A stretch of 47,240 nt of DNA from a virus: UHGV virus genome UHGV-0111354; one strand, written 5' to 3'. Shown here in pieces: positions 8,682-45,039 of the stretch. Every line of letters begins with the position of its first letter. Positions within the stretch are counted from its first letter, which is position 1. Position numbers and translations under genes: made by a program. The notes under the pieces are model-generated. The model worked only from the letters and a program-made list of their open reading frames with translations, was not told where the DNA came from and ran no database searches.

Positions 8682-8739
8682 TTGACGCACCCGTCAAACT
8701 AACGTAGTATTCAAATCACCGGGAGACAGAAGGTCTCCC
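8682..8739 (+). promoter_or_regulatory. Sigma70-type promoter TTGACG-17-TAGTAT with palindromic -35 (TTGACGcaccCGTCAA) and leader hairpin GGGAGACagaagGTCTCCC
   Basis: Seen in sequence. Near-consensus -35, good -10 with 17-nt spacer. A 7-bp perfect-stem hairpin sits at about +5..+23 of the predicted transcript. Confidence 0.6.
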
Positions 8740-8763
8740 ACATTTAACAGAGAGGAAATAACC

Positions 8764-9039: not shown

Positions 9040-9095
9040 CGCACCCGTCAAACTAACGTAGTATTCAAATCATCGGGAGACAGAGGGTCTCCCAC
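9036..9095 (+). promoter_or_regulatory. Second copy of the TTGACGcaccCGTCAA-17-TAGTAT promoter plus GGGAGAC..GTCTCCC leader hairpin
   Basis: About 75 bp near-identical to 8682-8757. Lies upstream of the SSB-like gene. Confidence 0.6.
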
Positions 9096-9118
9096 ACTTA
9101 GCAGAGAGGATTTATAAG

Positions 9119-12667: not shown

Positions 12668-12704
12668 TACCGGCGCATTACTGCGCCGGTTTGTTCGTCT
12701 TTTG
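12668..12704 (+). terminator. Intrinsic terminator: 8-bp stem CCGGCGCA ttac TGCGCCGG + TTTGTTCGTCTTTT
   Basis: Seen in sequence between the convergent genes ending at 12661 (+) and 12678 (-). Confidence 0.6.
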
Positions 12705-12992
12705 ACGCATTTCAGCAAGTTCAATTTCTGCCTTTTCACGTTCGATTCGCCTAATAATTTCCTCCTCTCTGCGCTCGGCAGACTCATTACGAATTCGTTG
12801 TATGTGACCACAAATCATGACAACCGTCAGTATAATACCACACAAGGTGGCGAAGATACCGACGGTTTCCGGGGTAATGCCGTATTTAGTCATCAGTCCC
12901 GTTATCGTCGTCCCGCTCGCCACTACTGTTCCGACTTGTGTGTTTCCAGTAAAGCTCATAGCGTTTTCTCGCTTCAATGTACCACTCGACAA
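12678..12992 (-). CDS. Single-TMD membrane protein with charged coiled-coil C-terminus (holin/antiholin-like or lysis-associated candidate)
   Basis: One hydrophobic span IFATLCGIILTVVMICG, then EERREEEIIRRIEREKAEIELAEMR. Neighbour of the endolysin region but on the opposite strand. Confidence 0.35.
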   Translation of the reverse strand: MSSGTLKRENAMSFTGNTQVGTVVASGTTITGLMTKYGITPETVGIFATLCGIILTVVMICGHIQRIRNESAERREEEIIRRIEREKAEIELAEMRQKTNKPAQ

Positions 12993-29126: not shown

Positions 29127-29466
29127 AGCGGTCCACGATTACCTTACAGTATTTGCGCCACGGGCGATTATCGGTACGAATCACTTTCCAGCGCTGACCC
29201 AGGAATACCCATTCACCATCGAGTGCGATTGAGTCAAGGTCACCATTGTTAACGTATATTTTACGCGGGTCAACGATGCGCTGACCGCCCTGACGCAGAA
29301 AATCAATTTCCTTGTCGCTCAGTGGTTGAATGTTCACCGTGAATGCAACCGGTCCGGATGTCGAGGTGACCCAGATGCCGTCCACGTATGAGCCAGATTT
29401 ACCCACATGTGTCGCCGGTACAGATTTAAACACGTTGTCAATATGACCACGCATTGACAGACTCAT
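29113..29466 (-). CDS. Head-tail joining/neck protein (unassigned)
   Basis: 117-aa ORF, overlapping its neighbours. Confidence 0.3.
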   Translation of the reverse strand: MSLSMRGHIDNVFKSVPATHVGKSGSYVDGIWVTSTSGPVAFTVNIQPLSDKEIDFLRQGGQRIVDPRKIYVNNGDLDSIALDGEWVFLGQRWKVIRTDNRPWRKYCKVIVDRYDQQ

Positions 29467-29966
29467 AAGATACCCTCGTCAGGTTTTTCGTTGCTGACCT
29501 TGTACGTTACGCTTGCGCGTAGTGCACCGGTGTCGATAAGTGGATTGTCCGAACCTTTCTGTTCGATTGTGTAATCGCTGTTCGGTGGCGTGCGAAGGTC
29601 AGTCATGTACTGCTGCACCGCACCGGCTGCGAATGCGCCCACTTGTTCAAGTACCTGGTCAAGCGGTAAATCATTAGCCACGCCATGAGCGATGGTGTCC
29701 ACGATATCCTGTTTACCACTCTGTACACCGGGTATCAGCCAGGGGCGCGGCGGGATGGGTGCGGGATTACCGTACAATTTGTTATTCGGGTTACCGTAAT
29801 TCAGTAATGCACCAAGCTGGGCATTTGTCATACCGGAGTCATGATGCTCACCTGCGTCCGAATGGATGCCGACAGTCACAGTCTTCTGACTGACTTTAGC
29901 GTATTGCTCCAGTTTCGAACGTATTGCCTGTTTGGCTTGCTGCAGCGCTTTGATGTTGACTGACAT
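29463..29966 (-). CDS. Head-tail connector/virion morphogenesis protein (unassigned)
   Basis: 167-aa ORF. First gene downstream (minus strand) of repeat copy 1. Confidence 0.3.
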   Translation of the reverse strand: MSVNIKALQQAKQAIRSKLEQYAKVSQKTVTVGIHSDAGEHHDSGMTNAQLGALLNYGNPNNKLYGNPAPIPPRPWLIPGVQSGKQDIVDTIAHGVANDLPLDQVLEQVGAFAAGAVQQYMTDLRTPPNSDYTIEQKGSDNPLIDTGALRASVTYKVSNEKPDEGIL

Positions 29967-30015
29967 AGTGTACCCTCGTTTGTCAAGACATTATCACACA
30001 ACGTTGCGCCAGTAT

Positions 30016-30313
30016 CCACATACCCCGTTAAAACTCGTTCGGGGTACTTCAACGGGGTATCAAAAACTCTTTAACTTTCAGTACTATACTACTTATTACC
30101 CTTATACCCTTATAAAATAGTAATTAGTAGTAATAGAAAGTATATAATATATAATATAAATGTAGTATAATACATAATGTATACTTTATAGGGTTTATAA
30201 GAAGGAAGAAGGGAAGAATGTACGGGGTTTTCGGTTATGCTCGTAAGCTGCTGATTGTGAAAGTAAATTCGCCACCCCTATGCCTCGTGTATTTCGGGGT
30301 AAAATGAGGTATT
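30016..30313. repeat. 298-bp direct repeat, copy 1 (identical to 44110-44407): 10-bp inverted repeat ATACCCCGTT/AACGGGGTAT, CGGGGTA iterons, about 150-bp AT-rich core
   Basis: Seen in sequence. Base-by-base comparison of the two copies shows identity over 298 bp. Boundaries come from the flanking mismatches. Confidence 0.9.
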
Positions 30314-30345
30314 GACGAATCCGTCAATCACTGATACACTCATTC
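30312..30345 (+). promoter_or_regulatory. Promoter TTGACGaatcCGTCAA-17-TACACT upstream of the GTG-start gene at 30372
   Basis: Seen in sequence. The palindrome overlaps the -35. RBS GAGGGG. Confidence 0.45.
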
Positions 30346-30371
30346 CATAAATTACAGAGGGGATTTCACCA

Positions 30372-31010
30372 GTGACTAGTGACCTGATTCTATTATTTCT
30401 GTCAGTAAATCCTGACTCCACTTTTAATGAGATGACAAAGTGCATGAGTATCAACGTGGGGTCAGCTTACTCAACGGTTAGTAATCTTAAAAAGTATGGC
30501 AATATCGTATCGACGTCTGAGAGGCCACGGCGGTACAGTATCACGAAAGAATTTACCGCAAAAAGTGAAGTATACGATGAGTACGTTCACCGGGTTATTG
30601 CGGCGGGTGCCAGCACTGTGGAAAGTGTTGTCAAAGTTAGCGGACTGTCATCTTACAGGGTTGCATTGTCCATCAGAAGACTGAAGAATTTGAACAAAAT
30701 ATCAACGATTACCGGTATGGGAATCACGTTGAATGAATTACCTGTTGACTTAAAACTAAAACCCTGGACAACAAAAGAAATGCAAACGCTGGAAGATTTA
30801 GCGGGGAGGGTACCAATCTCTGAGATTTGTGAGACATTGGGCAGAACACGAAACAGTATTCAGATGAAGTGTCATTTGCTTGGGTTGTCACTGGTAACGC
30901 ATACGTGCAGGAAAGGACACCGCATGGTCGAACGGAAAACTGGAAAATGGGTTTGCAATGAATGTCACTCCCAGGCGGAAAGATTGAGACGTGTGGTCAA
31001 TAAAGCATAA
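30372..31010 (+). CDS. Putative DNA-binding regulator (winged-helix-like N-terminus + C-terminal C4 zinc ribbon)
   Basis: 212 aa, GTG start. C-terminal CRKGHRMVERKTGKWVCNECH. Divergent from the neck operon. Confidence 0.35.
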   Translation: MTSDLILLFLSVNPDSTFNEMTKCMSINVGSAYSTVSNLKKYGNIVSTSERPRRYSITKEFTAKSEVYDEYVHRVIAAGASTVESVVKVSGLSSYRVALSIRRLKNLNKISTITGMGITLNELPVDLKLKPWTTKEMQTLEDLAGRVPISEICETLGRTRNSIQMKCHLLGLSLVTHTCRKGHRMVERKTGKWVCNECHSQAERLRRVVNKA

Positions 31011-31245
31011 GTCCGGAACCACCCTGTTCGTGACCACAAGTCGCATTACAGCGGTGAATCGTAGAGAAATGGGGTGGAGAGTCACCAGTATGCTAACAAA
31101 ACACTATCGTAGATTCTTCATTATCAGAGGTATCGTGGTTGAGGATGAAGGTTATTTATGTGCTGACAAGGTCATCATGAAGTATTACGGTCGTCACTAC
31201 GCCGGGAGGATTGGTGAATAAAGCCCCGTGAGGGGCTCATATTAA

Positions 31246-31875
31246 TTAGTTCGATGCAATAATGCCAGAGGCGCGCAGCTGGGTAAGCAGGTCATTTAAT
31301 TTTGTCGCAACCACGTTAACAGCCGTGGTTGCCGAGGTAGCCACGGAAGCTGCTTCATCTCCCGATACCGTCTGTGATCCGACATTGGAGACCGCTGAGC
31401 CTTGCGTAAACTTATCACCAGCCATCGCCGTTGATGCGGTTGTACCAATGACCAGACTCGAAGTGCCCGCACCAATTGCGGTACGTGCTGCGGCGGCGTT
31501 CGCACCTGCGGCGATAACAGCAGGTTTCCCGGTAATATTACCCCACGCCACAGAGCCGCCACTTGAAGGGGTCACGGTTCCCATCATCTGAATCATTGTG
31601 TTGTTATGGATGATTGGCGCACCCAATGGTTGAATGTCATTAGTCATGACAGCTGTTACAGCGTCAGCCAGACCCCGTGGGTCTACACCGACAACAGCTC
31701 GATAATCTTCAGAGATGTACCCGCTTACCGGCTCACCTGTGACAACCACCTGTCGAGGCGCACCACCTTGGATGAATATCTCACCAAGTGGCGTTTTACC
31801 TGTTGCAGCATTGACGAGTGCAACGAGTTCGCTAACTGTATTAGCAGAAAGAACTTCGTAAGTTGTTACCGACAT
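31246..31875 (-). CDS. Ala/Gly/Thr-rich virion protein (head fibre/decoration or connector candidate)
   Basis: 209-aa ORF. Low-complexity A/G/T/S C-terminal half. Confidence 0.3.
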   Translation of the reverse strand: MSVTTYEVLSANTVSELVALVNAATGKTPLGEIFIQGGAPRQVVVTGEPVSGYISEDYRAVVGVDPRGLADAVTAVMTNDIQPLGAPIIHNNTMIQMMGTVTPSSGGSVAWGNITGKPAVIAAGANAAAARTAIGAGTSSLVIGTTASTAMAGDKFTQGSAVSNVGSQTVSGDEAASVATSATTAVNVVATKLNDLLTQLRASGIIASN

Positions 31876-32038
31876 TTAATTACCTCATATGGCTAATGCG
31901 CCCATACCGACGCGTTTGCATTTTAACACAGTGAGTGTTACAGTCTCCACACGGGCAACATTAAAGTTACGGATGTAGCGCCTTCATAGGTTGGCCCGCC
32001 CGGTATCATTTAACCCCACAGATACCGGATTCACAGAA

Positions 32039-32953
32039 ATGGCCGCACGCATTCCACAAGAAGTAAGAGAGCAACAAATCGCTGAACTTTGCGAGGGAAC
32101 CATTTACTCTTTTGTCAGGTGGCAGGGTAAGTTCAAAGGTGTTAGGTCAAAATTCACATATATGTGTGAAAAGCATGGTGAACAAACCGGTAGAGTTGGG
32201 CAATTCATAAACGGTACCAGATGTCTGATGTGCGGCGTAAGTAAACGAATGTTCAGCCGAGAAGAAAGACAAGATCAATTCGAAACGGAACTGCAAAACA
32301 CTACCTATAGTTTCACCAGGTGGTCATATTACGACGGTAAGAATACAAGTAGAGTCGTTTTCAACTGTCAAAGACATGGGGAATGGGAAACATCTGTCAG
32401 GTCATTTGTCGGGGGTTCCCGGTGTCCAAAATGTTCCAAAGAGACATCGTCGGAAAAGCAAAGATTTGACGTACGGAAACGAACTGAGCAGATTATTAAG
32501 ATGTGTGAAGATTCCGGGTACATATTCGAGGGTTGGTGTGATAATTACCGCAATGCCAATAGTACTTTCAATTGTAGATGTGGGGAACATGGTGTGTGGA
32601 AGGTTGGATTCTCCGCTTTTAAACACGGTACGCGTTGTCCAAGTTGTGCTAAGACAGGGTTTAATCCCGATAAACCAGCGTGGCTATACTGTCTGATTTC
32701 AGAAGACAACTTGTTGAAAGTCGGTATCACCAACAATATCGAAACCAGAATTTCACAGTTAAGAATTTATACTCCGTTCAGTTTCGAAGTTTTGGAAAAG
32801 TTTAAAAATGTTGATGGTCACTTAATTCGAGAATTGGAAAAACAAATGCATTTACAATTTGAGAGTGCAAATCTGAAAGGGTTTCAGGGGTGTACCGAAT
32901 GGTTAAAGTGGAACCCAAAGATTCCACTATGGTTTAGATTTTTAAACGGCTAA
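32039..32953 (+). CDS. Homing-endonuclease-like protein: three zinc-ribbon repeats + C-terminal T5orf172/MUG113 (GIY-YIG-like) domain; ORF open from TTG at 31991
   Basis: Repeats [73 protein letters not shown]-terminal [28 protein letters not shown] is a T5orf172-like motif. Confidence 0.55.
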
Positions 32954-33361
32954 AGCGCCCATTCCGATTTTTTTACGTAGTGAATAGAACTCCTGCCCGA
33001 ATATAGTATAGGTAAGGAAGTCATTGTTAACCTCCATCATTTGGGGAACTCGATATGCAATTGATTCATCTCCCACGGATTTCGAAGCAACGTTTAATCT
33101 TGCTTCCGTGTTCACATCTCCCCCCATACCGTCTGGATAATACATTGCTAGCCAGGCCGCAGTATAGAGAAACATTCCGGTCATCTTATTAGAATGACAG
33201 TCCGGTTGATATTCTCCCCATCGACGGGAACCAGTTGCAACGTCCCCACGACAAAGGGCGTATTGAAGTAATGCATCCGGGAATTTAACTGTATCCTCGA
33301 AAATACCCATTCCACCCTGCCAGATGCGAAAATCTGCGATGACTTCGGCGGTGATGTGCAT
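32942..33361 (-). CDS. Hypothetical protein
   Basis: 139-aa ORF in the head module. No motifs recognised. Confidence 0.3.
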
Positions 33362-33381
33362 GTTATATACCCGTGTGTTAA

Positions 33382-33699
33382 TTAGGAGGCGGTTTTTACT
33401 GCCTCAATTTCTTGTTGAAGACGTGACTTCTTCCAGCGTGTATCAACTTTGATGCCCAGTTCTTCGGCTTCTGCACGAAGTTTGTCAATAGTCACATCGT
33501 TGGCGTCTGAGTCAGGGTTGACCAGTTCACCACTTGTGACGACCAGTTCACCTGCGTCCTGATATGCACTGACCAGACTGTAAATTGCCGGAGTAAGTTC
33601 GAACGCTTTCGAATCACCCGGTGCCAGCATGCGTTCCATCACATCTTCTTCACCCGGCATCATGAACGGGCGCACGGAAATATTTTTTACAGTAATCAT
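33382..33699 (-). CDS. Hypothetical protein
   Basis: 105-aa ORF, acidic C-terminus, with a hairpin after the stop. Confidence 0.3.
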
Positions 33700-33731
33700 A
33701 AATCACCTTTAGTTGCAATACTTACCCGTTG

Positions 33732-35129
33732 TCATTTTACCCACAACAGCTTGTCCTGTCCAGAATCGTAGATACGCGAGACACCTTCTGATTCGTACCA
33801 TTGCGTCTGCGTCATTCCATCCGGTGCACGGTTCCACTTCTCACGCGATTCGGTTGTGCAACCATTTACAATCCTGAACCCCACTGTCGTGGTTGAAAGT
33901 GTGAAACCAGCATTAATATAACTGGAACCGCTGAACAAATCCCTGTCAACGTATGAATAGGCGCGGTTAATGTTGTTAACCGTGGTAGCATGTTTCCACA
34001 GGCGGGACAGTCCACCCGGAACATTACACGCGGTTGCATATCGTACCAGTTCCCACTCATTCTTTTTCTGCCAGTTTGTCAGACTGATTACGGCGACTAA
34101 GGTATCATCGTGTTGCAGACCATAATGCGCGGTCGCACCCCGGAAACCCTGTACGTGGTGTTTCTCCATGAACGCCTTCGCTTCAGACGTCGAAACTTCC
34201 ACAATGTTACATTTTCGGGCAAACACTTTGTCGGATGTCACGCCGAGTGCGTTGCGAATGATATTTTCCACCTGTTCGCGGCGCTCATTCCAGACATCCT
34301 CGCGAATGCTTATCAGACGGTATCCTGCTGCTTCCACGCGATGACGCTTGGTAATGTGATACCTCTTATCCTTCGTGCGCTCATCGTGCCAGTACAGACC
34401 GTTAAATTCGATTGCCAGATTGTGTGACGGCACTACAACATCAAGTTCCAGCGGTCCAATGATTGTACGGTCGGATTGTACCGCATCGGGACAAATGGAA
34501 CGGACGAAGTTGAAGACTTCTGTTTCGGCTTTTGATACTCCCGAGTTGGAGCACTTAGGACAACCTGACCCCTGCCTCACGTGAACATCCGCCAGTTGTT
34601 CGAAAACTCCGTGTACCGGGCAACGTATGGAGACTGTCTGGTCAATCCTCAAATAATTCGTATCTGTGTAGTCATATTTGTCTCCGTGTTTGACTCTTGC
34701 CTTTTTTACCCATTCATCTTTTGACATTTTGCCGCCGCGATTACAGGCGGGACAGCCCGATCCGCGTAGATGTATTTTTATACTCTGATTGAACTCCCCG
34801 TGATCGGGACAGATTGCTGTCAGTGACTTTGAGTTTACGCCCGCGATGCGGTACTGATATCTGCCGGAGTGTATTATCATCGCTTTCCGTATTACTTCAT
34901 CGATTGGGGTACTACGCTTGGAAGCAGAGCGCTTGTCTCCACACTTGGGACACCCGATTCCAGCGAGATGACTGTATGCTTTCTGCTGGAATACCCCGTG
35001 CTCGGGACAGATTATCGACACCGTATCATGCACTTTACCGAAGAAAACGTGGGAATAATCATACTTACCTCCGTGTTTCTGAGACGCCCTCTGTTTGAAA
35101 ATATCAACCGTTACTCTGACTCGTTTCAC
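33732..35129 (-). CDS. Homing-endonuclease-like protein: three zinc-ribbon repeats + Vsr/DUF559-like PD-(D/E)XK endonuclease domain + C-terminal domain of unknown function
   Basis: Repeats CPEHGVFQQKAYSHLAGIGCPKCG, CPDHGEFNQSIKIHLRGSGCPAC, CPVHGVFEQLADVHVRQGSGCPKC. GPLELDVVVPSHNLAIEFNGLYWH is Vsr/DUF559-like. Inserted just after the capsid-gene terminator. Confidence 0.55.
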   Translation of the reverse strand: MKRVRVTVDIFKQRASQKHGGKYDYSHVFFGKVHDTVSIICPEHGVFQQKAYSHLAGIGCPKCGDKRSASKRSTPIDEVIRKAMIIHSGRYQYRIAGVNSKSLTAICPDHGEFNQSIKIHLRGSGCPACNRGGKMSKDEWVKKARVKHGDKYDYTDTNYLRIDQTVSIRCPVHGVFEQLADVHVRQGSGCPKCSNSGVSKAETEVFNFVRSICPDAVQSDRTIIGPLELDVVVPSHNLAIEFNGLYWHDERTKDKRYHITKRHRVEAAGYRLISIREDVWNERREQVENIIRNALGVTSDKVFARKCNIVEVSTSEAKAFMEKHHVQGFRGATAHYGLQHDDTLVAVISLTNWQKKNEWELVRYATACNVPGGLSRLWKHATTVNNINRAYSYVDRDLFSGSSYINAGFTLSTTTVGFRIVNGCTTESREKWNRAPDGMTQTQWYESEGVSRIYDSGQDKLLWVK

Positions 35130-35197
35130 TGTGCGACCCTCTTTTTGTGTTTGTACCGATACTACATGTTTTATATTCCGGCGTCAACGCAAAAGAA

Positions 35198-35217
35198 AAG
35201 CCCTCCGAAGAGGGCTT
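35198..35217 (-). terminator. Intrinsic terminator after the major capsid gene: AAGCCCTC cgaa GAGGGCTT + TTTCTTTTG on the minus strand
   Basis: Seen in sequence, 20 nt downstream of the capsid stop. Confidence 0.65.
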
Positions 35218-35239
35218 GGGATGTCGCTGAGGGTAGGTA

Positions 35240-36274
35240 TTACAGCATATCGAGATAGATTGCGCTCAGAGGATAGCGGATTTCGGTGCCTGAAATCTTA
35301 TACTCTGCCGGTACAGTTACGGTCAGACCTTTATTCTGCGGTGCCAGCATACGGAACGGAATCGGCTTGGCAACACCCAGGTTGCGGTCGTTCTTCTCGT
35401 AAATGAGAACACGGTCTTTCGAATCGTTGGACACACCGCCCGCAGCCAGTTCCGCAGCGGTCAGCTGGTAACGAACCTGAATATCAATTTCCTGCCCGGT
35501 CATCAGGGTGAAGGAGTTATTGATTTTGAAATGCTCCATAACGGTGCGGTCAGTATACCCGGTCATCAGGGTGCTGTTCATGCGTTTCCACAGGTCCGGG
35601 AATACGCGAATGGTATTCGGCAGGTGGAAGTTTTTGGACAGTTTGATGATGTCGAACAGCGGGTCGTTGAGCATGTTGAACAGCTCCTGACCAGTGGCGG
35701 TGGTGTAGTCGACGGTCGCCTTAGTCACGGTCACGTTGCTGTTATTGAACAGACCAGCCATTCCCAGTTGTGAGTCACCGAAGTAAGCCACTTTCTGACT
35801 ATGCTCTTCGTAGCCACGATATGCCAGCTGCTGCTGCATGGTGTCAATCGGCATGTTCTGAGATGCAGTGGTGCGCAGCTCATCGATGCTGTAGTGACAC
35901 TCGATGCCGCCATAGTTCAGCGGTACAGTGTGGAGTTTCGCAGATTGAGCGACGTGTGGCAGGTCCATCGCGTTTGCACCGATGAACTTCCCAACCGTGA
36001 CGCCATCATAGCTCCGGTACACCCAATGGTTCGCGAACTCAGGAATGCCGGATACAACCGGGATGTCCTGCAGATAAGTGATATCCGCGTACGGAGTTGC
36101 ATAGATGGTCTGCTCAATCTGTGCCAGCTGAGAGATGTAGAATGCGATACCACCGTCAGCATCACGGAATTCAGCCGGAACGTTGACAGCGTTCTGACCA
36201 TCCAGATACTGTTTAACCCACGGGTTGCCCGCAATAGTCTGTGCGTCAAGTACAACGCTGTTTAACTTATCCAT
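35240..36274 (-). CDS. Major capsid protein (HK97-fold inferred)
   Basis: 344 aa. Position after protease/scaffold and decoration genes. A strong terminator follows, typical of highly expressed capsid genes. Confidence 0.55.
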   Translation of the reverse strand: MDKLNSVVLDAQTIAGNPWVKQYLDGQNAVNVPAEFRDADGGIAFYISQLAQIEQTIYATPYADITYLQDIPVVSGIPEFANHWVYRSYDGVTVGKFIGANAMDLPHVAQSAKLHTVPLNYGGIECHYSIDELRTTASQNMPIDTMQQQLAYRGYEEHSQKVAYFGDSQLGMAGLFNNSNVTVTKATVDYTTATGQELFNMLNDPLFDIIKLSKNFHLPNTIRVFPDLWKRMNSTLMTGYTDRTVMEHFKINNSFTLMTGQEIDIQVRYQLTAAELAAGGVSNDSKDRVLIYEKNDRNLGVAKPIPFRMLAPQNKGLTVTVPAEYKISGTEIRYPLSAIYLDML

Positions 36275-36276
36275 TA

Positions 36277-36765
36277 TTAACCCCCAACAACCAGAGACAG
36301 TTTAGCCAGACCACCAGCTATTGCGGCAGTGAGGAATTTAGCACCAGGAATGGCAACCGACAGAGTTGCTGATCCGCCAGCCGTCTTAGCAAAATCACCG
36401 GTCTGATTCGCACCAACACGCAAGAATGCAGCGTCACCAACGGTGACAGCCTCCGCCACGGTTACCCAGATTACGCCAGCGGTGAGCACAGATGCCGGAC
36501 GGTCGACCGGAGCACCGAAAGTTGCGCCGTCAGCGTAAGAGCGGTTCAGTTCACGAACCAGTACGCCCACGAAGTCGTCAGCTGTGGAGCTGGCAGTCGC
36601 AGCCTTAAAGCCTTTCTCGCCGCTACGTACAACACCTTTACCGTATGCGACGGTTGCGGTGTCATCGTTAATTTTGGAAACGATATTCGCTACTTGTCCG
36701 TCGGCGACCATCCCGGTAAAGGCTGCGTCGTGATTCAGACCGTAGCTGGTTGCAGTAATAGCCAT
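36277..36765 (-). CDS. Head decoration-like protein
   Basis: 162-aa Ala/Gly/Val-rich ORF between the protease/scaffold and capsid genes. Confidence 0.35.
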   Translation of the reverse strand: MAITATSYGLNHDAAFTGMVADGQVANIVSKINDDTATVAYGKGVVRSGEKGFKAATASSTADDFVGVLVRELNRSYADGATFGAPVDRPASVLTAGVIWVTVAEAVTVGDAAFLRVGANQTGDFAKTAGGSATLSVAIPGAKFLTAAIAGGLAKLSLVVGG

Positions 36766-36776
36766 CTATGTCACCC

Positions 36777-37919
36777 TTATTTAAGTTTACCAGTCTGACG
36801 CAGCAGTGCTTCTTGTGCGCGGGACAGTACAGGTTTTGCGTCGGCTACCGGCTGTTTGATGTCTTTAGCGGCATCTTTAGCCAGTTGCTCAAGCTGTGAG
36901 TCTACCACAGGTTTCACCGGTTCTTCTACAGCCATGTCGAAAGCGGCTTCAACATAGGCGGTAGATTTTTCAGCCCAGTCAACAGACGGACGTTTAACAG
37001 CGAGAGCGGCACGTTTGATTGCAACCGGGTCCATGCTGTCACAGGTGAATTCATCGCCAGCAACTTTACGCGCTGAGGTGGTAACACGTGCAATTGCTTC
37101 CACGCGTGCTTTCAGGGCTTCGTCGCTGCATTTGGTGGTCAGGTCAGCAACCTGTTCCAGTGCTGCGTCGAGTTGGGCCTGTACGGTTTCTTTGGCGGCT
37201 TCGGCGTCACTGACACGCTGTTCCAAGCGTTTGAACGCGTCTACCACCGCAGCATCCGCCACATCAACTTTTAGCCCGGTGTCAGTGGTGATTTGATACA
37301 TGGGTTTTTTCTCCATATTATCGAAGATACGCGCCATTGCACCCGCACGAGCACGGTCAACAATTGCAACGTGGTTAATTTTAATCTGAGTCTGTCGGAA
37401 TTCGTATGGTTCACCTTCCGGCGTTGTCCCTGGTGTACAATCATACACCGCCGTGTAACCCGCTGACAACTCACACTTGCCGGTTTCGACAGCCTTAATC
37501 GCGTCTTTATCCTTAATAACCATATCCACAATGACAAAATCGCCGTCCTGGCGACCAACACTCGTTACAACACCAACGGAAGTGTTACGGTACGTGGAAG
37601 CATTGACGAGTGTGGGGGGATGGTTATTCGTGACATCTGCGCCGAGATAGCTCTGAAGTGATTCATCGTTAAACACTTCTTCGGCGGGACGGTATACACG
37701 GATAATGTCGTTCGGTGCGCGGTCTTTCAGTCCCAGTTCCGAAGCGAGATATTCCTGAATACCAGTACGAGCGGCTTTACCCGGCACACGCAGGAATCCC
37801 TCATCCGTGTAAACACGTTGGGAATTCAGTGCGAAACTTTTACGGTCATTGTGTGTTACGGTGATTTGCATGTTGACGAGTCCGTCAGAGTATGCCATAG
37901 TGATAATCGTTAAACACAT
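36777..37919 (-). CDS. Prohead protease fused to Ala-rich coiled-coil scaffold domain
   Basis: The N-terminal half is globular. The C-terminal half AEAAKETVQAQLDAALEQVADLTTK... is a scaffold-like coiled coil. Position between MuF-like and capsid genes. Start ambiguous (37919/37898/37871). Confidence 0.45.
   Translation of the reverse strand: MCLTIITMAYSDGLVNMQITVTHNDRKSFALNSQRVYTDEGFLRVPGKAARTGIQEYLASELGLKDRAPNDIIRVYRPAEEVFNDESLQSYLGADVTNNHPPTLVNASTYRNTSVGVVTSVGRQDGDFVIVDMVIKDKDAIKAVETGKCELSAGYTAVYDCTPGTTPEGEPYEFRQTQIKINHVAIVDRARAGAMARIFDNMEKKPMYQITTDTGLKVDVADAAVVDAFKRLEQRVSDAEAAKETVQAQLDAALEQVADLTTKCSDEALKARVEAIARVTTSARKVAGDEFTCDSMDPVAIKRAALAVKRPSVDWAEKSTAYVEAAFDMAVEEPVKPVVDSQLEQLAKDAAKDIKQPVADAKPVLSRAQEALLRQTGKLK
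37873..37910 (+). promoter_or_regulatory. Moron promoter TTGACGagtcCGTCAG-17-CATAGT
   Basis: Seen in sequence, upstream of the plus-strand gene at 37948. Confidence 0.45.
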
Positions 37920-37947
37920 GATACATATATTTCAGAGGAGATACAAC

Positions 37948-38370
37948 ATGGCTCAATACGTCTACCATCTCGGTACGCCTGAGATGTTTGCGCGGATGTC
38001 CGAAGGTGTAACCCATTTGTTTCGCAACAAGTTAAACGGCATTGTCAAGGGCATATGTTTGCCCGATGTGATTGCGACATATAGTGCTCGGCTCGATCAG
38101 GAACTTATTGCACAACGTGAACGTGTCACCAATGTGGCACCCGCGGTAACCAATGACAACATCAACCACCCGTTACGCTACACGAAGGGCGATATCGAAT
38201 GTATCGACGCTATTAAGGCCGCCACCGTTGGTAAAACCGGTATCGAGGCGGTATGTGTGGCGAATGTCGTTAAATATCTGTGGCGCTATGAAGAGAAGAA
38301 CGGTCTGGAAGATGTGAAAAAGGCCCGTTGGTATCTCGAGCGCTTGATTAATGAACTGGAGAACGAGTAA
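37948..38370 (+). CDS. DUF3310-family phage protein
   Basis: NHPLRYTKGDIECIDAIKAATVG...ANVVKYLWRYEEKNGLEDVKKARWYLERLI matches the DUF3310 signature blocks (HP.HY..G.IE.ID...KY..R...K.G..DL.KA.WYL.RL). Confidence 0.55.
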   Translation: MAQYVYHLGTPEMFARMSEGVTHLFRNKLNGIVKGICLPDVIATYSARLDQELIAQRERVTNVAPAVTNDNINHPLRYTKGDIECIDAIKAATVGKTGIEAVCVANVVKYLWRYEEKNGLEDVKKARWYLERLINELENE

Positions 38371-38555
38371 TGAGTAACGATTTCATCGCCCAATGTGAAA
38401 CTGAATTAGATAAAATCGACACCATTTTAAAACCATACGCATACGAAGTGACAACCAACCGTGGTACGACATATCTGGTCCGCGCGGGTAGTGTGGCGCA
38501 TAACAACGCTGTTATGTTCGGGTATCAACTGAAACCGTTATACGAGGGTGAGTGA
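38370..38555 (+). CDS. Small hypothetical protein
   Basis: 61-aa ORF, ATGA-coupled. Confidence 0.35.
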   Translation: MSNDFIAQCETELDKIDTILKPYAYEVTTNRGTTYLVRAGSVAHNNAVMFGYQLKPLYEGE

Positions 38556-38557
38556 TT

Positions 38558-38689
38558 ATGCCTGTTTACATGAAACTCAGAAGTAGTGGTACTACACTCG
38601 TATTTGGTCTTTATGACAGTCGGGCCGAAGCGGAACGGGTATGCAACGTGTTAAAAGCATTAAATGATGCGTGGGAGTTTTACATATGA
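38558..38689 (+). CDS. Small hypothetical protein (43 aa)
   Basis: ORF found by hand, 3 nt after the upstream stop. Confidence 0.25.
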   Translation: MPVYMKLRSSGTTLVFGLYDSRAEAERVCNVLKALNDAWEFYI

Positions 38690-38877
38690 TACCACGCTAC
38701 CCAACCGGAACACTTGTGAAGTTATTCCCCGATGGTGTCGTTACCGGTACTGTTGAAAATGTTGTCGCAAATGACCCGCCGCAGTACTGGGTCAAATGTG
38801 ACGATGGTAATTACAGCTGTCACGCGCAGCGCGATTTGAAACGAGTGGGGGTGTTGTATGGACCTTCTCATGCTTAG
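38686..38877 (+). CDS. Small hypothetical protein
   Basis: ATG overlapping the upstream stop. The ORF-track version starts at GTG 38671. Confidence 0.3.
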   Translation: MIPRYPTGTLVKLFPDGVVTGTVENVVANDPPQYWVKCDDGNYSCHAQRDLKRVGVLYGPSHA

Positions 38878-38910
38878 TGTCGGCGTTGTGATTTGGGTCG
38901 TATATTTAAG

Positions 38911-38940
38911 TTGACGAGTTCGTCAGGGATGACGTATACT
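38911..38940 (+). promoter_or_regulatory. Promoter TTGACGagttCGTCAG-18-TATACT
   Basis: Seen in sequence. Palindromic -35 element. Confidence 0.5.
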
Positions 38941-38978
38941 CAGTTCATCAACAACAACAGAGAGGGTTTGAGAGACAA

Positions 38979-39128
38979 ATGAACACATTACTTCCCGGCT
39001 ACAACCGTCCCGCCCCACAAGCGCGGGTCATTGATAAAGAATTGTTAAAGACCGCACAACAGCTTGCGCGCAAGCATGAAGGTTGGACGCTCGCTAACGC
39101 TGTGTTGCGTGAGGCGTATGGAAAATGA
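38979..39128 (+). CDS. Small hypothetical protein (49 aa)
   Basis: ORF with RBS AGAGGG downstream of the promoter above. Confidence 0.3.
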   Translation: MNTLLPGYNRPAPQARVIDKELLKTAQQLARKHEGWTLANAVLREAYGK

Positions 39129-39322
39129 ACTATAAACCTGTCAAGGCGGTAATGCTCCGCAACAATGACCGGATTATCGATGTGGACGGTGTTATCACCG
39201 TAACGAACTTTAAAATGAACTTCCGTGAAGATATCGTGACATTTACCGCGACCAAAGAAGACGGTTCAGCATCTGAGCGCTGGATAGCGATGGACCGACT
39301 TGTCAATAAGGTTACTTCTTAG
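39125..39322 (+). CDS. Small hypothetical protein
   Basis: 65-aa ORF, ATGA-coupled. Confidence 0.35.
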   Translation: MNYKPVKAVMLRNNDRIIDVDGVITVTNFKMNFREDIVTFTATKEDGSASERWIAMDRLVNKVTS

Positions 39323-40073
39323 CCTTATACCGCTCCACTGCTGCCGATGTTACCGGCCTACTGACGCATCGGCAGTTTATTGCTTGACCTGGAAATGTCG
39401 GCATACCATCGACAACCGGCAAATCATCCCAGCGGAACACACCTTCACCGAATCCCACATCACGTTTAGCAACTTCAACGTGGCTGTGACGCACCCGCTC
39501 ATCCTGTGACGTTACCCATCTGAAATACTCAATACCACTGTTCGTCTGACGGATACGGTTCATATCACCCTGTATTTTACTCGTCTGATCGCGTGCAATT
39601 AATTTAGCACGACGCTCCGTGACACCAAATTGTTTAACGAGTGCTTCCTCGATGTAACTGGGGCGCATACCGTTACGCATATTGGTCATGACAATGTTCT
39701 GCACCTGCTCCAGATACTGAGCCGGAATTGACTGAATGAGTTTGGCATTCTGATACGATGCCGCGCTGAGATATTCCTGCAGCTGTGTATCGCCGCCGTA
39801 CAGATTGATAGCGAATGAGCGGGCGTTATCCTTTGCCGCAGTCTGTACAAACTGTGACGCGATAGTCTCAGCCTGACGACGAGCAAACGCGCCAAGCCAC
39901 CGTGTGAGCAACTGGTTAATCGCCGAGGTAATAGTGTCACTCCAGCCGTCAGCGGTGTACTCCGGCGCAAGCTGTTTCACCAGTGGTACAATGTTGGTGT
40001 CCACATCCTCATGAACAAGCCGTGCAACCTGTTTCAGCTGACGATAATAATTTAGTTCTGTTTGTCGTGACAT
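39312..40073 (-). CDS. Head morphogenesis protein, Mu F-like / SPP1 gp7 family (minor capsid protein)
   Basis: C-terminal HSHVEVAKRDVGFGEG...PGQAINCRCVS matches the Phage_Mu_F conserved C-terminal block. Confidence 0.65.
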   Translation of the reverse strand: MSRQTELNYYRQLKQVARLVHEDVDTNIVPLVKQLAPEYTADGWSDTITSAINQLLTRWLGAFARRQAETIASQFVQTAAKDNARSFAINLYGGDTQLQEYLSAASYQNAKLIQSIPAQYLEQVQNIVMTNMRNGMRPSYIEEALVKQFGVTERRAKLIARDQTSKIQGDMNRIRQTNSGIEYFRWVTSQDERVRHSHVEVAKRDVGFGEGVFRWDDLPVVDGMPTFPGQAINCRCVSRPVTSAAVERYKAKK

Positions 40074-40075
40074 GC

Positions 40076-40141
40076 TTGACGGCCTCGTCAGTATGGTGTA
40101 GAGTGTACGTGTTAGTTAAATATTATCACAGGAGAAGAGAG
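40076..40141 (+). promoter_or_regulatory. Promoter TTGACGgcctCGTCAG-...-TGTAGA with about 70-bp conserved leader (copy B of the 25535 cassette)
   Basis: Seen in sequence. Near-identical to 25531-25600. Confidence 0.55.
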
Positions 40142-40762
40142 ATGAGTAAACCAAAGCAAAAAGAAACCGAAACAGACAGCGAGTATGCTCTTAGAATTTC
40201 AGAATGGAAAGAGATGCGAAAAGAGTACAAGAGAAAGTGGAACGAACAGAATCGGTCACATACTTCCCAATACAACAAGAAATGGCAATCTGAGAACGTA
40301 GAAAAAGTTTCACAGTATAGAGAGGAGTATTACAAACAAAACAAAGACGTCATTACTGAAAGGGTGATTGATTGGCAAAGAAAAAATCCTGAGAAGTATG
40401 CCAATAAATCAAAAAGACATTATCTTGCCAACAAGGATAAGTTTGCGACCAGAGTGGTCAAAAGAAGAGCGAACTTAATACAGGCCTCAATCGGTGAAGA
40501 TGTAGAAAAAGTCTATTCACAACTATACCGATACGCAAAGTTACTTAGCGGTAACCTCGAAGTGGACCACATCATTCCGTTGCGCGGCGTGGATGTCAGA
40601 GGGTTACATACTTCGGAAAATCTCTGCCTATTGCCGAGAGAAATAAATCGTTCGAAAGGTAATAAATTCGATCAAGAAGCATACTTCTACTTCTTCAAAA
40701 GATACCCGAGATGTACCGCTTCGAGACTGTACGCGAGGTACATCTCGGGTAGATTAGGATAG
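40142..40762 (+). CDS. HNH homing endonuclease (inserted between portal and MuF genes on the opposite strand)
   Basis: EVDHIIPLRGVDVRGLHTSENLCLLPREINRSKGNKF is the HNH motif. Lys/Glu-rich N-terminus. Start chosen at the ATG with RBS GGAGAAGAGAG. Confidence 0.65.
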   Translation: MSKPKQKETETDSEYALRISEWKEMRKEYKRKWNEQNRSHTSQYNKKWQSENVEKVSQYREEYYKQNKDVITERVIDWQRKNPEKYANKSKRHYLANKDKFATRVVKRRANLIQASIGEDVEKVYSQLYRYAKLLSGNLEVDHIIPLRGVDVRGLHTSENLCLLPREINRSKGNKFDQEAYFYFFKRYPRCTASRLYARYISGRLG

Positions 40763-42151
40763 TTTTGCCATTATCTCATCATGAGACAGACCATCTGTCA
40801 CGTACTGGTTATAGCGTATCCAGAACGCATCCTGTTGTTCGGTGAGCTTTGGTTCATCGTCAGGGGGAGACGCAACGTAATCTGACTCCACCGAAGCCTG
40901 TTTATCTATTTCACCATCTTCAAACTGATATTCTTCAGACGATTCGAGATTGCGCATGATTTGTGACGGTCTTACTATTCCCTCTGCTAGATATGCTAAA
41001 TCCTTATCGGCGCGGATTTTGGCAGCTTGTGCAATCTGCAATTCATTAGGTTGTGCGAGTGGTCGCCACTCATAGTTAAAGTCGTCAGGCCAGTAACCCA
41101 GTGCGCTACGCACCAGCACTTCATCAAGCTGGCGCAACCCAGGGTCAACCTGTGTCAACTGTTTAGAGCGGATGGAGTTGTTGTAGTTGTTCATGTCTCC
41201 TTCACCCGTGGCGTTTAAACCTTTGGCGGAGGTACCGAACAGGCGTGTGACAGGAATGTCAGCCGCGCCACTAATCCACGTCATGAACGTCTCAAGCACT
41301 GGCGCAACACCGCCCAGGTCGAGCGTCTTACGTTCGTATGACTCATCACCGTCAAGCAGAGCCATTTGCACCAGTGACTTCATCTGGCTGAACAGGGTGT
41401 AACGCGACACAATTGCGTCATCCTGGTCGCTGGCTAACTCGTCGGATAGTCCTTCACGTTTAACCACATCGACGTTTGCCTCCTGCATCAGTTCCGCGAT
41501 GCCGTCCTTCGATGCAACCATGTCCATGATGTCATCGAGGCATACGCGCAACTCACTGTCACCCCATCCCTGAGTCTGGACCATCTGGCGACGCGGCAAA
41601 CGCTTACCATTGAAGCGCGCAAAATGGGTCCAGTGGATTTGCTGACCGCCGCCGGTAATGGTGTAATACTCCGGCATCATGTAGTTGGGTGCCAGAATAT
41701 CCCAGGTGTTCATGGTGAGCGGTGACATATCGTGACGGTCAAACACAATACAACGCTTCAAATCACCTTTACGAATACGGCGCACGTCGAGCGGCTTTGA
41801 CAGGTCCTGCCCGGTCAGCATGAGAATACCACCGCCACCATACAGACGCGCCCATGTGACAGCCTCCTGCACGTTGGCAGCTATCATCAGACGGTCTTCT
41901 TCGATGCGAATGTCATCGGCTTCCTTGCACTTGATGGTGCGCCACTCACGACACATGTCCTCTGCGGGTATTTCCACAATCTGACGAGCCAGCCAGTTAG
42001 TCTGGTAAGCCGCGTCGAGTTGTTGCCAGTTGGACAGCGCAGCATACTGGAACGCGTTGTGAGAGCGTTTCGCTTTCCACGTTCCGAGACCAGATACGAC
42101 GTTTACCAGCCCATCGGTGGTGTGAAGGTTTGTTTTAGCAGCCTTAGCCAT
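40754..42151 (-). CDS. Portal protein
   Basis: 465 aa, lying between the large terminase and MuF-like genes. Acidic C-terminus. Confidence 0.55.
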   Translation of the reverse strand: MAKAAKTNLHTTDGLVNVVSGLGTWKAKRSHNAFQYAALSNWQQLDAAYQTNWLARQIVEIPAEDMCREWRTIKCKEADDIRIEEDRLMIAANVQEAVTWARLYGGGGILMLTGQDLSKPLDVRRIRKGDLKRCIVFDRHDMSPLTMNTWDILAPNYMMPEYYTITGGGQQIHWTHFARFNGKRLPRRQMVQTQGWGDSELRVCLDDIMDMVASKDGIAELMQEANVDVVKREGLSDELASDQDDAIVSRYTLFSQMKSLVQMALLDGDESYERKTLDLGGVAPVLETFMTWISGAADIPVTRLFGTSAKGLNATGEGDMNNYNNSIRSKQLTQVDPGLRQLDEVLVRSALGYWPDDFNYEWRPLAQPNELQIAQAAKIRADKDLAYLAEGIVRPSQIMRNLESSEEYQFEDGEIDKQASVESDYVASPPDDEPKLTEQQDAFWIRYNQYVTDGLSHDEIMAKLS

Positions 42152-42153
42152 GT

Positions 42154-43602
42154 TTATAAAATCTCCGAAACGGTTGCTTTGCCATTGTGGAGCATTTGAC
42201 TAATTGCATCACACATTGGGTCAATCTGGTCATCGTGAGCGTGTGTGTCATCAGCGGTGAACGCTTCACACTCCGTAACGAAGTCATGAACCCATGGGGC
42301 ATCTTCGGGTATCTTAACATATCCTGACTCAATGTAACCCTGTACGTCCATCACGCGGGTTAATTTATTTGCCGCCGGTCCGCGTGGTATCTCCCGCACG
42401 GGTATCACGGGTTTAATTTTGCGGCGAATCTTCTGGATAAGTTCTGTACCGGATGATTTATCTTCGACAGCCATGTAACGCAAACGACCATTTTTGTCAT
42501 TGCGATGCTTGTTCCAGAAGTCGGGAATTTTTACCTCAAGCTCATACGCTTCGAACTTGTCACGCATGATGTCGAGGAGATACAGATATCCATCCTCACC
42601 GAGTCCCCACAGTTCGGCAACCTGATAGTCATTGTGCTCTTTGGCTTTCTGCGCCGTATCGATGAACACCGCTCTGTATTTCAGCTTTGGCACAACGGTG
42701 TAACGTCCGAACCATGACCCCTTCAGAATGCCGCCCCCGAGCGGTGAGGGACGTTGCTGCATCTGACCGGAGAACATGTACGAGTTTTTCTTCTGCATCG
42801 CTTTGAGGGCTTCCAGAGAGTGTTTCTGGGGCCACAATGCACGCTCCGTCGGTAAACCCTCGTCCACAATGGCAGGAAGCACCAGATGACGGAAATTATA
42901 CTCCTCGTCCTTCAGCAGTGTGCCGCAGAAGTCTTCCTCGTGAAGTCGCTGCATGATGACAATGCAAGGCGTCTTTGTGGAGTTAAAACGTGATTTAATA
43001 GTTTCATCCCAACGACGGTTAACACCGTTGCGTTTTGGATCAGAATACGCGTCATCCGGTTTTAACGGGTCATCGATGATGATTGCACCACCAAACCCAT
43101 TACCGTTCTCGAAGTCGTCCAGTTTGCCAGCACCAAAACCAGTGATAGGGCCACCCGCAGCCGTCGCATAGAATACACCACCCTGGTCAGTGCCCCACGC
43201 CTTCTTCGAATCCTTATTCGCCTTGATGGTCACATGAGGCCACAGTTTTTGAAACTCTTCGGACTTCAAAACTGATTTGATGGATTCAGAGTTATCCAGT
43301 GCGAGAATATCAGCGTAGGACAGGTGAATAAATTCACACTTTGGATTTTTAACGTAACACCATGCGGAAAATAATTTAACAGCCAGTTCAGTTTTTGAAT
43401 AACGCGGCGGCATGTTAATTATTAAATGAGTGGTGCGACCGTAAAATACATCCATCAACGCATCACAAATTACATGATGGTGGTCACTGAATACAAACTT
43501 AGTCCCTTTTAAAACTTTGAAGAAGAAACGGGCGAATAAAGTAAAATCTTCCTCAAGTGCGAGGCGTAGTAATTTTAATTCTTTTGGGGAATTAAAATTC
43601 AT
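42154..43602 (-). CDS. Terminase large subunit
   Basis: 482 aa. N-terminal ATPase region with INMPPRYSKTE P-loop-like segment. C-terminal acidic nuclease-like region. Flanked by TerS-like and portal genes. Confidence 0.6.
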   Translation of the reverse strand: MNFNSPKELKLLRLALEEDFTLFARFFFKVLKGTKFVFSDHHHVICDALMDVFYGRTTHLIINMPPRYSKTELAVKLFSAWCYVKNPKCEFIHLSYADILALDNSESIKSVLKSEEFQKLWPHVTIKANKDSKKAWGTDQGGVFYATAAGGPITGFGAGKLDDFENGNGFGGAIIIDDPLKPDDAYSDPKRNGVNRRWDETIKSRFNSTKTPCIVIMQRLHEEDFCGTLLKDEEYNFRHLVLPAIVDEGLPTERALWPQKHSLEALKAMQKKNSYMFSGQMQQRPSPLGGGILKGSWFGRYTVVPKLKYRAVFIDTAQKAKEHNDYQVAELWGLGEDGYLYLLDIMRDKFEAYELEVKIPDFWNKHRNDKNGRLRYMAVEDKSSGTELIQKIRRKIKPVIPVREIPRGPAANKLTRVMDVQGYIESGYVKIPEDAPWVHDFVTECEAFTADDTHAHDDQIDPMCDAISQMLHNGKATVSEIL

Positions 43603-44062
43603 CGTTGAACGCCTTTTTAAATACTTTCACATCTTCGGCGGTAATATTGATATTTGTATTCACATTATCCAGACCGCCGGACAACTGAATCAATTGCTTA
43701 TCCAGTCCCATCAGTTTCGCTTTACCAAGCACTGCCGCCACAGCTGCGGATGATTGCGGCGTCTCGGCGGACAACGCAACGTTTTTAATTTCTTCCAGTT
43801 CTGCAACGAGTGAATCAACTGTCACGTTGTGGCGCTTTGAATGAACTTGACGAAGTGAGGCAATTCTCCCCGCAACTGCCCCGTTATCCAGCATTTCAGA
43901 TGCTCGTTTAGCGATGGTGTTTACGGCCATGCGGGAAGTGTTATACGAGCGGCGATATGACTCGGATGCGTTACCCGTTTCCACAAATGCCTGAGCAAAC
44001 TTCTCTTGCTGCTCTGTCACACCATGTTCGTTAAGTTTAGCCCTTGCCATGTTGGCCCCCAC
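43592..44062 (-). CDS. Terminase small subunit
   Basis: 156 aa. N-terminal HTH-like QQEKFAQAFVETGNASESYRRSY, typical of the Terminase_2 small subunit. Immediately upstream of TerL. Confidence 0.55.
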   Translation of the reverse strand: MGANMARAKLNEHGVTEQQEKFAQAFVETGNASESYRRSYNTSRMAVNTIAKRASEMLDNGAVAGRIASLRQVHSKRHNVTVDSLVAELEEIKNVALSAETPQSSAAVAAVLGKAKLMGLDKQLIQLSGGLDNVNTNINITAEDVKVFKKAFNDEF

Positions 44063-44109
44063 GCTATTGTCTCTAATGCCACGATTTTATCATGACTGTA
44101 CCGTCATTG

Positions 44110-44407
44110 CCACATACCCCGTTAAAACTCGTTCGGGGTACTTCAACGGGGTATCAAAAACTCTTTAACTTTCAGTACTATACTACTTATTACCCTTATA
44201 CCCTTATAAAATAGTAATTAGTAGTAATAGAAAGTATATAATATATAATATAAATGTAGTATAATACATAATGTATACTTTATAGGGTTTATAAGAAGGA
44301 AGAAGGGAAGAATGTACGGGGTTTTCGGTTATGCTCGTAAGCTGCTGATTGTGAAAGTAAATTCGCCACCCCTATGCCTCGTGTATTTCGGGGTAAAATG
44401 AGGTATT
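44110..44407. repeat. 298-bp direct repeat, copy 2 (identical to 30016-30313), 48 bp upstream of the TerS start
   Basis: Seen in sequence. Confidence 0.9.
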
Positions 44408-44460
44408 TACCTGTAATTCTCTATTATTTTATAGTATATACTCTGCAAAAGGAGAGAAAC

Positions 44461-45039
44461 ATGATTCATCTTATAGATAATTGTCACGGCACTACAAAAT
44501 TTAAAGAAACAGAATTGTGCAGTATTTGTACACTTCATGACCACCATAATTTTGTGAAAGCGAAAAACATGGGTCTTCCTGCACGCAACGAACTCTATCA
44601 AAAAGTTCTCGACGGTCTTAATGATGGTCGCTCGTGGAGAGTACAGAAGAAACCGAACAGTGAATGTGGACATCCGGGCGTCCGTAACACTGCTGGTAAA
44701 TGTGTCTTCTGCTTGACCGAGCAACGCATGACGGGGGAGTGGAAAAAACCAAAAGCAGCCATTGTTAATACCGCTGGTGAAGCCGACGCACTGCGTGAAA
44801 ACATCGCAATGATTGAGCATAATATTTCTGTTTTGAATGAACAGTTAGAGACGATGAAAAACGCCCTGTTACTGAGTGAATCGGGAATTCACGTTGGGGT
44901 CATTAAAATCAAATCACCGCGCCAGCAAGCCATCGCCGACGGTAAACGTTGGTATATTCCGTATGAGCCTTGTAAGCATTGTAATATTATTGCGGAACGT
45001 TATGTGGCAAATGGTAAATGCCGTAATTGTGGGAGATAA
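44461..45039 (+). CDS. Multi-zinc-ribbon protein with central coiled coil
   Basis: 192 aa from the ATG with RBS AAGGAGAG. CxxC-type pairs NCHG/CSIC, ECGHPG...CVFC, CKHC...CRNC. Confidence 0.4.
   Translation: MIHLIDNCHGTTKFKETELCSICTLHDHHNFVKAKNMGLPARNELYQKVLDGLNDGRSWRVQKKPNSECGHPGVRNTAGKCVFCLTEQRMTGEWKKPKAAIVNTAGEADALRENIAMIEHNISVLNEQLETMKNALLLSESGIHVGVIKIKSPRQQAIADGKRWYIPYEPCKHCNIIAERYVANGKCRNCGR

Follow-up and report, generated by a model that had tools for sequence, protein, structure and literature searches.

The control region of phage phi29 (promoters A2c/A2b and A3, with the p4 sites) extends over a few hundred bp between divergent early-type and late promoters and holds several short regulator boxes, on which a higher-order complex switches expression. 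In phages Mu (C and Mor) and P2/P4 (Ogr and Delta) several late operons have a homologous dyad upstream of a poor -35, within sites of about 20-30 bp that are loosely similar to each other. The PeSL cassettes of T4-type phages are repeated regulatory DNA as well, short and numerous, found at the borders of gene blocks and serving as recombination substrate. We have analyzed a stretch of 47,240 nucleotides, the virus genome UHGV-0111354 (from here on the window), that carries two copies of a 298-bp element, copy A at 30016-30313 and copy B at 44110-44407, each placed at the start of a main virion operon. Our analysis indicates that the two copies are most likely one ancient cis-acting module. 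By analogy, its working principle would be closest to that of the phi29 p4 region and of the Mu/P2 late promoters, although a higher-order complex is here only proposed. The differences are clear. The phi29 region is single copy, whereas the element described here recurs at a distance of 14 kb and contains an extreme AT core; and where the Mu and P2/P4 sites are short, here about 300 bp are shared and homogenised. Like the PeSLs, the element would be repeated regulatory DNA at gene-block borders, and it is a recombination substrate, but it consists of just two long copies at fixed conserved positions. It is a conserved cis-element of a familiar kind, apparently undescribed so far. In the papers searched or queried by term on Jedunavirus, JD001, PEAT2, MSW-3/PEi21, KB2, HHU1, JYSS3, KpTDp1 and KpV79 the repeat, the promoters and the termini are not mentioned, with the exception of the termini of phage IME346.

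The initial annotation of the window described the pair as perfectly identical over 298 bp, and exact comparison agreed, confirming both ends. The first mismatch past the identical run is G30314 versus T44408, which repeat searches and BLAST bridge to give 300-301 bp. This pair is the sole long repeat in the window. Other duplicated promoters had been described as drifted, which is right: the further repeats, both of them promoter-type units, are one pair of 75 nt with 95% identity and one of 71 nt with 90%. Copy A lies between the leftward neck operon and a rightward winged-helix regulator gene, 49 bp from the neck ATG (29966), and copy B between terS (leftward) and ORF192 (rightward), 47 bp from the TerS ATG (44062); the annotated distances were about 50 and 48 bp. 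The 14.1-kb interval between the copies contains, as annotated, terS, terL, portal, MuF, protease and capsid, together with head-completion genes and opposite-strand inserts that include the endonuclease genes. A terminal repeat or an assembly artefact joining two genome copies was considered and rejected, since the copies do not lie at the ends of the genome (about 48 kb) but inside it, separated by 14.1 kb, and the same two-copy layout recurs in about 70 independent genomes.

The window belongs to a Jedunavirus about 99% identical to Klebsiella phage vB_KpnM_JustaPhage, although it is a distinct phage with an extra endonuclease gene (31991-32953). A 300-bp query matched 71 phage records, nearly all of them Klebsiella Jedunavirus, at 74-100% identity, and nearly every record had two places, at the same two sites. 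The apparent third copy ("3 places", for example in SBP) turned out to be one copy split over the ends of the record, as checked in KpV52, cmc20193, JustaPhage and SBP. Outside the genus, both copies recur in the corresponding places in Pectobacterium phage PEAT2 (Peatvirus). In the Edwardsiella phages MSW-3 and PEi21 (Yokohamavirus, capsid 63% identical) no BLAST similarity to the element of the window was detectable. MSW-3, nevertheless, has a direct pair of 110 bp with 94.5% identity, one copy upstream of terS and the other between gp19 and the neck gene (L061 13773-13882; L064 2140-2247 continuing into L061 1-2, this one crossing record ends). The order of its parts is that found in the window: a distal ACCCC/GGGGT cluster, a pyrimidine tract, an AT-rich stretch, the AAGGGTAT-AAGGGTAA boxes, a spacer of about 30 nt, a CACCCCG...CTGGGGTAT dyad and then the late gene. 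The copy A site is therefore occupied in Jedunavirus, Peatvirus and Yokohamavirus alike, and judging from the genomes compared the two-site layout is real and old, conserved across three phage genera. Where the rest of the two copies has diverged, it is the late-gene-proximal half that stays shared, over 110 bp in MSW-3, 117 bp in copy B of PEAT2 and 155 bp in copy B of c051106. In yet another relative (L057, capsid 71% identical) gp19 directly adjoins the neck gene, and there is neither an AT island nor a GGGGTA cluster.

Many contigs and records begin or end inside a copy at scattered positions, among them the record ends of KpV52, JustaPhage, cmc20193 and SBP. Besides, IMG/VR contigs of about 34-36 kb (L010, L012, L014, L024, L027) and of 11.5-14.6 kb (L011, L018) match the 34-kb and 14-kb unique segments. 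Evidently, short-read assemblies come apart at the repeat, leaving fragments of about 34 kb and 14 kb. A further direct repeat of 57 nt (98-100% identity, 195 bp apart) was seen downstream of the tail tube gene in relatives including JD001 (L052 17417-17473 and 17612-17668; L053 17696-17752 and 17891-17947); the window does not have it.

The boundaries of the element coincide with promoters. Each copy takes up precisely the DNA that separates two divergent, outward-facing predicted promoters, from one -35 hexamer to the other, and in two independent scans the top sigma-70-type promoters fell on either edge of copy A and of copy B. On the minus strand, the predicted promoter of the neck operon, TGGATA-17-TGtGATAAT (29990-30018), has its -35 overlapping the first 3 bases of copy A and is conserved in KpV52, PEAT2 and pKp383. 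That of the terS operon, TGGCAA-17-TGaTAAAAT (44084-44112, minus strand), overlaps in the same way the first 3 bases of copy B; it is conserved in all B copies, its equivalent in MSW-3 being TTGGCG-18-TGgTATTAT. At the other edges, on the plus strand, TTGACG-17-TACACT (30312-30340, of a palindromic TTGACG-N3-CGTCAA class) has a -35 straddling the right end of copy A, and TTTACC-18-TATAGT (44406-44435; TTGACC in relatives), the predicted promoter of ORF192, straddles the right end of copy B. When the roughly 450 bp preceding the late genes were scanned with position weights in ten contexts, the extended -10 promoter abutting the edge ranked first in eight (neck and terS of the window, KpV52 and PEAT2; terS of pKp383 and MSW-3), with scores of 9.2-11.7. 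At the neck of pKp383 it came a narrow second, scoring 7.5 where a site 450 nt upstream scored 7.7, and at the neck of MSW-3, the only real exception, it was missing. Inside the element no score exceeded about 7.7. The late promoters combine weak -35 hexamers (TGGATA, TGGCAA), a TGn extended -10 and a dyad just upstream. Such a combination is the geometry of activator-dependent promoters.

The palindromic class is a family of its own, with 36 matches to TTGACG-N3-CGTCAA on both strands of the window versus 5.8 expected (for example at 63, 3805, 6318, 6375, 8682, 9036, 25535, 30312, 37873, 38911 and 40076). Most small-gene blocks, and the tail operon too, begin with such a promoter, whose palindrome probably doubles as an operator for a phage repressor. 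Each unit of the 75-nt pair mentioned above (8682-8756 and 9036-9110, 354 bp apart) holds one of them followed by a hairpin, GGGAGAC...GTCTCCC. A GC-rich hairpin, AGCCCCGTGAGGGGCT, is present at 31222-31237, where the gp21-like and gp20-like genes converge. It probably terminates transcription in both directions and closes the head operon, in which case the neck operon would need a promoter of its own.

Inside each copy the parts are arranged from the late-gene side as follows. The proximal dyad (30020-30060; 44114-44154 in copy B) has its arms ATACCCCGTT and AACGGGGTAT at 30020-30029 and 30051-30060, with another CGGGGTA box, the third, at 30040-30046. The 10-bp inverted repeat of the initial annotation is thus present, but its spacer is 21 nt and not about 18. 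At least four CGGGGTA iterons per copy had been claimed and four were counted, one of them inverted; the window has 13 where 4 are expected, 8 of them inside the two copies. Counted from the predicted neck start, the proximal CGGGGTA spans about -44 to -38, and the other arm of the dyad covers about -77 to -68. The arms change together (TACCCTG / CAGGGTA) in one lineage, in copy B of pKp383, RCIP0113 and c032061. Overlapping the inner arm, at 30054-30126 (44148-44220 in copy B), the blocks GGGGTATnAAAAACTCYTTA and ACCCTTATACCCTTATAAAATAGTAATTA are invariant or nearly so in 29 copies and still recognisable in MSW-3; the second, read toward the late genes, corresponds to the AAGGGTAT-AAGGGTAA boxes. 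These two, with ACGGGGTTTTCGGTTATGC and TGATTGTGAAAGTAAA, are the most conserved blocks of the whole element, and three of the blocks were searched for elsewhere in the window without finding a further occurrence of comparable quality. The AT-rich stretch that had been annotated corresponds to 30063-30200 (44157-44294 in copy B), with 19.6% GC. Within it, 30070-30189 is at 18% GC the lowest 120-bp stretch of the window, the next being 29% and the window mean 49% (sd 6). Finally, the distal blocks ACGGGGTTTTCGGTTATGCnCGTAA and TGATTGTGAAAGTAAA, followed by CACCCCT...CGGGGTA (30218-30301; 44312-44395 in copy B), are conserved in the 29 copies, a conservation forced in part by the pattern used to collect the copies. 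GGGGTA boxes are in this way found at both ends of each copy.

Two candidates for a product encoded by the element were rejected. A small ORF at 30218-30307 (29 codons, MYGVFGYARK...) has a stop that varies among relatives, giving 20, 21, 29 or 43 codons, lacks a start codon in MSW-3 and does not keep its ribosome-binding site. For a structured non-coding RNA, the Rfam search of the element gave just two sub-threshold chance hits, and no stable or covarying fold was found beyond the CCCC/GGGG dyads. In pKp383 (L007, about 41900-42043) and RCIP0113 (L006, about 12680-12816), copy A is found without most of the proximal dyad, and an insert of about 60 bp separates it from the neck promoter; the inserted bases resemble the distal block (GCGGGTTTCGG...GTGAAAGTAGTA), as if they had arisen by unequal exchange.

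The perfect identity of the two copies had been attributed to active homogenisation or strong selection. The first part of this claim was borne out. The flanks of the element in KpV52 are identical to those of the window, yet its copies A and B differ at about 16 of 300 positions, and both copies of the window are nearly identical to copy B of KpV52. The simplest reading of this comparison is that a recent B-to-A gene conversion took place in the lineage of the window and JustaPhage, with a tract ending where the homology ends. The same tendency appears in the ten genomes with both copies that were compared by a permutation test. Within a genome, A and B were 83.7-99.7% identical (mean 91.4%), while between genomes the averages were 77.8% for A-B, 76.2% for A-A and 80.6% for B-B (p = 5e-5). 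The effect was strongest in the AT core (91% within genomes versus 62-67% between), for which there are two haplotypes, deeply diverged from each other; A and B had matching haplotypes in 10 of 10 genomes. The conserved blocks, on the other hand, showed about 90% identity whichever copies were compared, a sign of purifying selection. On these data concerted evolution of the copies is well supported and homogenisation is real, but perfect identity is a lineage-specific snapshot and not a property of the element.

Among the three roles initially proposed for the repeat (a duplicated late-promoter or activator-binding region, a packaging site, a recombination substrate), the first gives the best fit, with the -35 hexamers at the edges and the GGGGTA dyad at about -38 to -77. 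We tentatively favour, with slightly less than an even chance of being right, that the two copies are a cis-regulatory module common to the main virion operons, of which one is terS-terL-portal-head and the other neck-sheath-tube. A phage-encoded DNA-binding protein would recognise the GGGGTA boxes, that is, the dyad upstream of each late promoter, two AAGGGTA boxes further upstream, at 30098-30126 in copy A, and the second cluster at the distal end. The boxes together with the AT-rich core, easily bent or melted, would form a nucleoprotein complex able to activate the late promoters with their weak -35, and possibly to turn down the divergent ones. Packaging and head genes would in this manner be co-regulated with neck and tail genes. 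We consider this functional model a reasonable one. It is supported by the fit of the edges to the -35 hexamers, the weak -35 and extended -10 of the late promoters, the location of the dyad at activator positions, the orientation toward the late genes that is fixed in three genera and the persistence of the proximal half when the rest diverges. The absence of AT island and GGGGTA cluster in L057, the paired changes in the arms of the dyad and the concerted evolution point in the same direction.

Several observations weigh against this model. About 140 bp below 20% GC with 6-8 iteron-like boxes exceed what an activator site typically needs and resemble an origin. The proximal dyad is largely replaced in copy A of the pKp383 type. 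In MSW-3 and PEi21 the neck ATG is just 18 nt past the dyad, which leaves no room for a core promoter downstream. A third late operon (tail, from the equivalent of JustaPhage gp34) uses TTGATT-17-TACACT with the palindrome and has no GGGGTA boxes, so the module is not a universal late-promoter signature. And the binding protein, sought through ORF192 homologues, a structure model and a fold search, gave no functional lead; no homologue of the Mu C/Mor or P2/P4 Ogr/Delta activators was found either.

ORF192 (44461-45039, plus strand) is nevertheless a candidate DNA-binding protein for the element. Three zinc-ribbon-like motifs rich in Cys accompany a central coiled coil in the protein, and in Jedunavirus and PEAT2 its gene is conserved beside terS, in divergent orientation. 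A homologue is encoded by PEi21, and MSW-3 has a candidate ORF in its place. Alignment of homologues, searches of Pfam, NCBIfam and PDB sequences, and an AlphaFold model (pLDDT 82) compared by Foldseek with PDB and viral structures retrieved uncharacterised phage homologues only. The remaining neighbours are the small terminase subunit TerS (43592-44062, minus strand; Terminase_2 family, PF03592, E = 5.6e-8; phrog_51, E = 1e-22), the first neck gene (29463-29966, minus strand; Neck1 or tail completion, phrog_222, E = 1e-45) and, adjoining copy A, the winged-helix (TrmB-like) or D5-like regulator gene (30372-31010, plus strand), a position of variable cargo in relatives. A TetR-like protein is encoded at 2491-2808. 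Between the gp20-like and gp19-like head genes is located the extra endonuclease gene (31991-32953, plus strand). Its product of 320 aa (phrog_681) has zinc-finger, CapR and MUG113/T5orf172 domains, and as the 99%-identical JustaPhage does not have the gene, a homing endonuclease seems to have inserted here recently.

The composition of the core brings to mind a replication origin. The two copies would then be paired origins, or an origin and a distant cis-acting enhancer in the manner of P4 ori/crr; an initiator would bind the GGGGTA iterons and the 18%-GC core would melt, with the divergent outward transcription perhaps aiding. We regard this as possible but unlikely. Replication of P4 requires two separate iteron-bearing sites, ori and crr. 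As in P4 and in iteron origins such as lambda ori, the iterons here are multiple, in both orientations and adjoin an AT-rich stretch: the 6-8 boxes flank the most AT-rich 120 bp, 5 sd below the window mean. The AT core, with its two haplotypes, keeps its composition and not its sequence across genomes. The phage has, moreover, a possible initiator. The 785-aa protein at 111-2468 (minus strand) combines an NrS-1-type primase-polymerase helix-bundle domain with a DUF5906 helicase part and shows a weak match to the C-terminus of the P4-family primase; its own C-terminal part might bind the iterons. P4 would share with the window two cis sites with common iterons and a primase-helicase of a related superfamily. 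The block TTTTCGGTTA (30231-30240) resembles the recognition site of the NrS-1 primase, TTTGGTTA (PMC8718748), a lead and nothing else, as a chance match is expected about once in three such regions. However, the iteron sequence is unrelated to those of P4 and lambda. The element is located far from the replication genes, its position and orientation are tied to the starts of late operons in three genera, its edges coincide with -35 hexamers and its conserved part is the half nearest to the late genes. Searches for host-factor boxes or known origins gave a single DnaA-like box, in copy A only, no IHF consensus and no similarity to plasmid sequences or E. coli genomes. Both roles might also be combined, and one nucleoprotein complex could serve as paired origin or enhancer and switch on the late promoters, coupling replication to the virion genes.

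The vicinity of terS suggests, in turn, a pac site bound by the small terminase, with copy B as the working site and copy A as a second initiation site or a passenger kept by conversion. The pac site of SPP1 measures about 270 bp, with TerS boxes around a central cut region, and the cosB repeats of lambda are just upstream of Nu1. The element is similar in size (about 270-300 bp), in its repeat clusters and, for copy B, in lying directly upstream of terS; its TerS is in Pfam Terminase_2, to which SPP1 G1P presumably belongs as well. The relative IME346 is reported to have no fixed termini (PMC9007800), which is consistent with headful packaging. But this explains just one of the copies. Copy A is 14 kb away from terS, beside the neck gene, and is conserved in three genera at a place where a packaging logic is absent. 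Besides, the boxes do not track the terS alleles: these differ by about 30-35% at the nucleotide level while the proximal boxes are nearly unchanged, as in cmc20193 and PEAT2. Contig and record ends inside the repeat were rejected as evidence of pac, their positions being scattered and the sizes of the fragments (about 35 kb and 14.5 kb) those expected from assembly breakage. The packaging option of the initial annotation fits copy B and leaves copy A unexplained, and we consider it improbable.

A role at the RNA level appears more doubtful still. Here the element would be a hairpin 5' leader, nut- or put-like, for antitermination, processing or stabilisation of the two late transcripts. Each of the two copies stands where a long operon begins, a hairpin of 7-10 bp could fold from the conserved dyad, and in MSW-3 this dyad precedes the neck start codon by 18 nt, on the path of a read-through transcript. 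Nonetheless, the folding energies of both strands and of the distal part were no better than those of shuffled sequences (z = -1.8, -1.4 and +0.2), the alignment consensus fold kept the CCCC/GGGG pairing of the dyads only, no Rfam family matched, and in the window the predicted starts, near 29983 and 44077, are downstream of the element, leaving it outside the late mRNAs.

The least probable role, that of a recombination linker selected to exchange or excise the 14-kb head module, has in its favour that the copies demonstrably recombine and that alleles switch beside both of them (terS/terL left of B, variable cargo right of A), but the mosaic boundaries we tested occur all along the genomes with no preference for the copies, excision would lose essential head genes and the strongly conserved internal blocks imply a sequence-specific function beyond mere homology, so that the excisable or swappable module initially suggested finds no support besides the recombination itself.

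For the evolution of these viruses, the element is a clear-cut natural example of non-coding DNA evolving in concert inside one virus genome, and a single datable conversion event separates the window from KpV52. Therapies against Klebsiella based on jedunaviruses are under development, and the element is the clearest cis-acting landmark in their genomes. It offers a defined target for work on regulation, the replication origin and the packaging signal in Jedunavirus, and as a repeat it could cause deletions in engineered phages.

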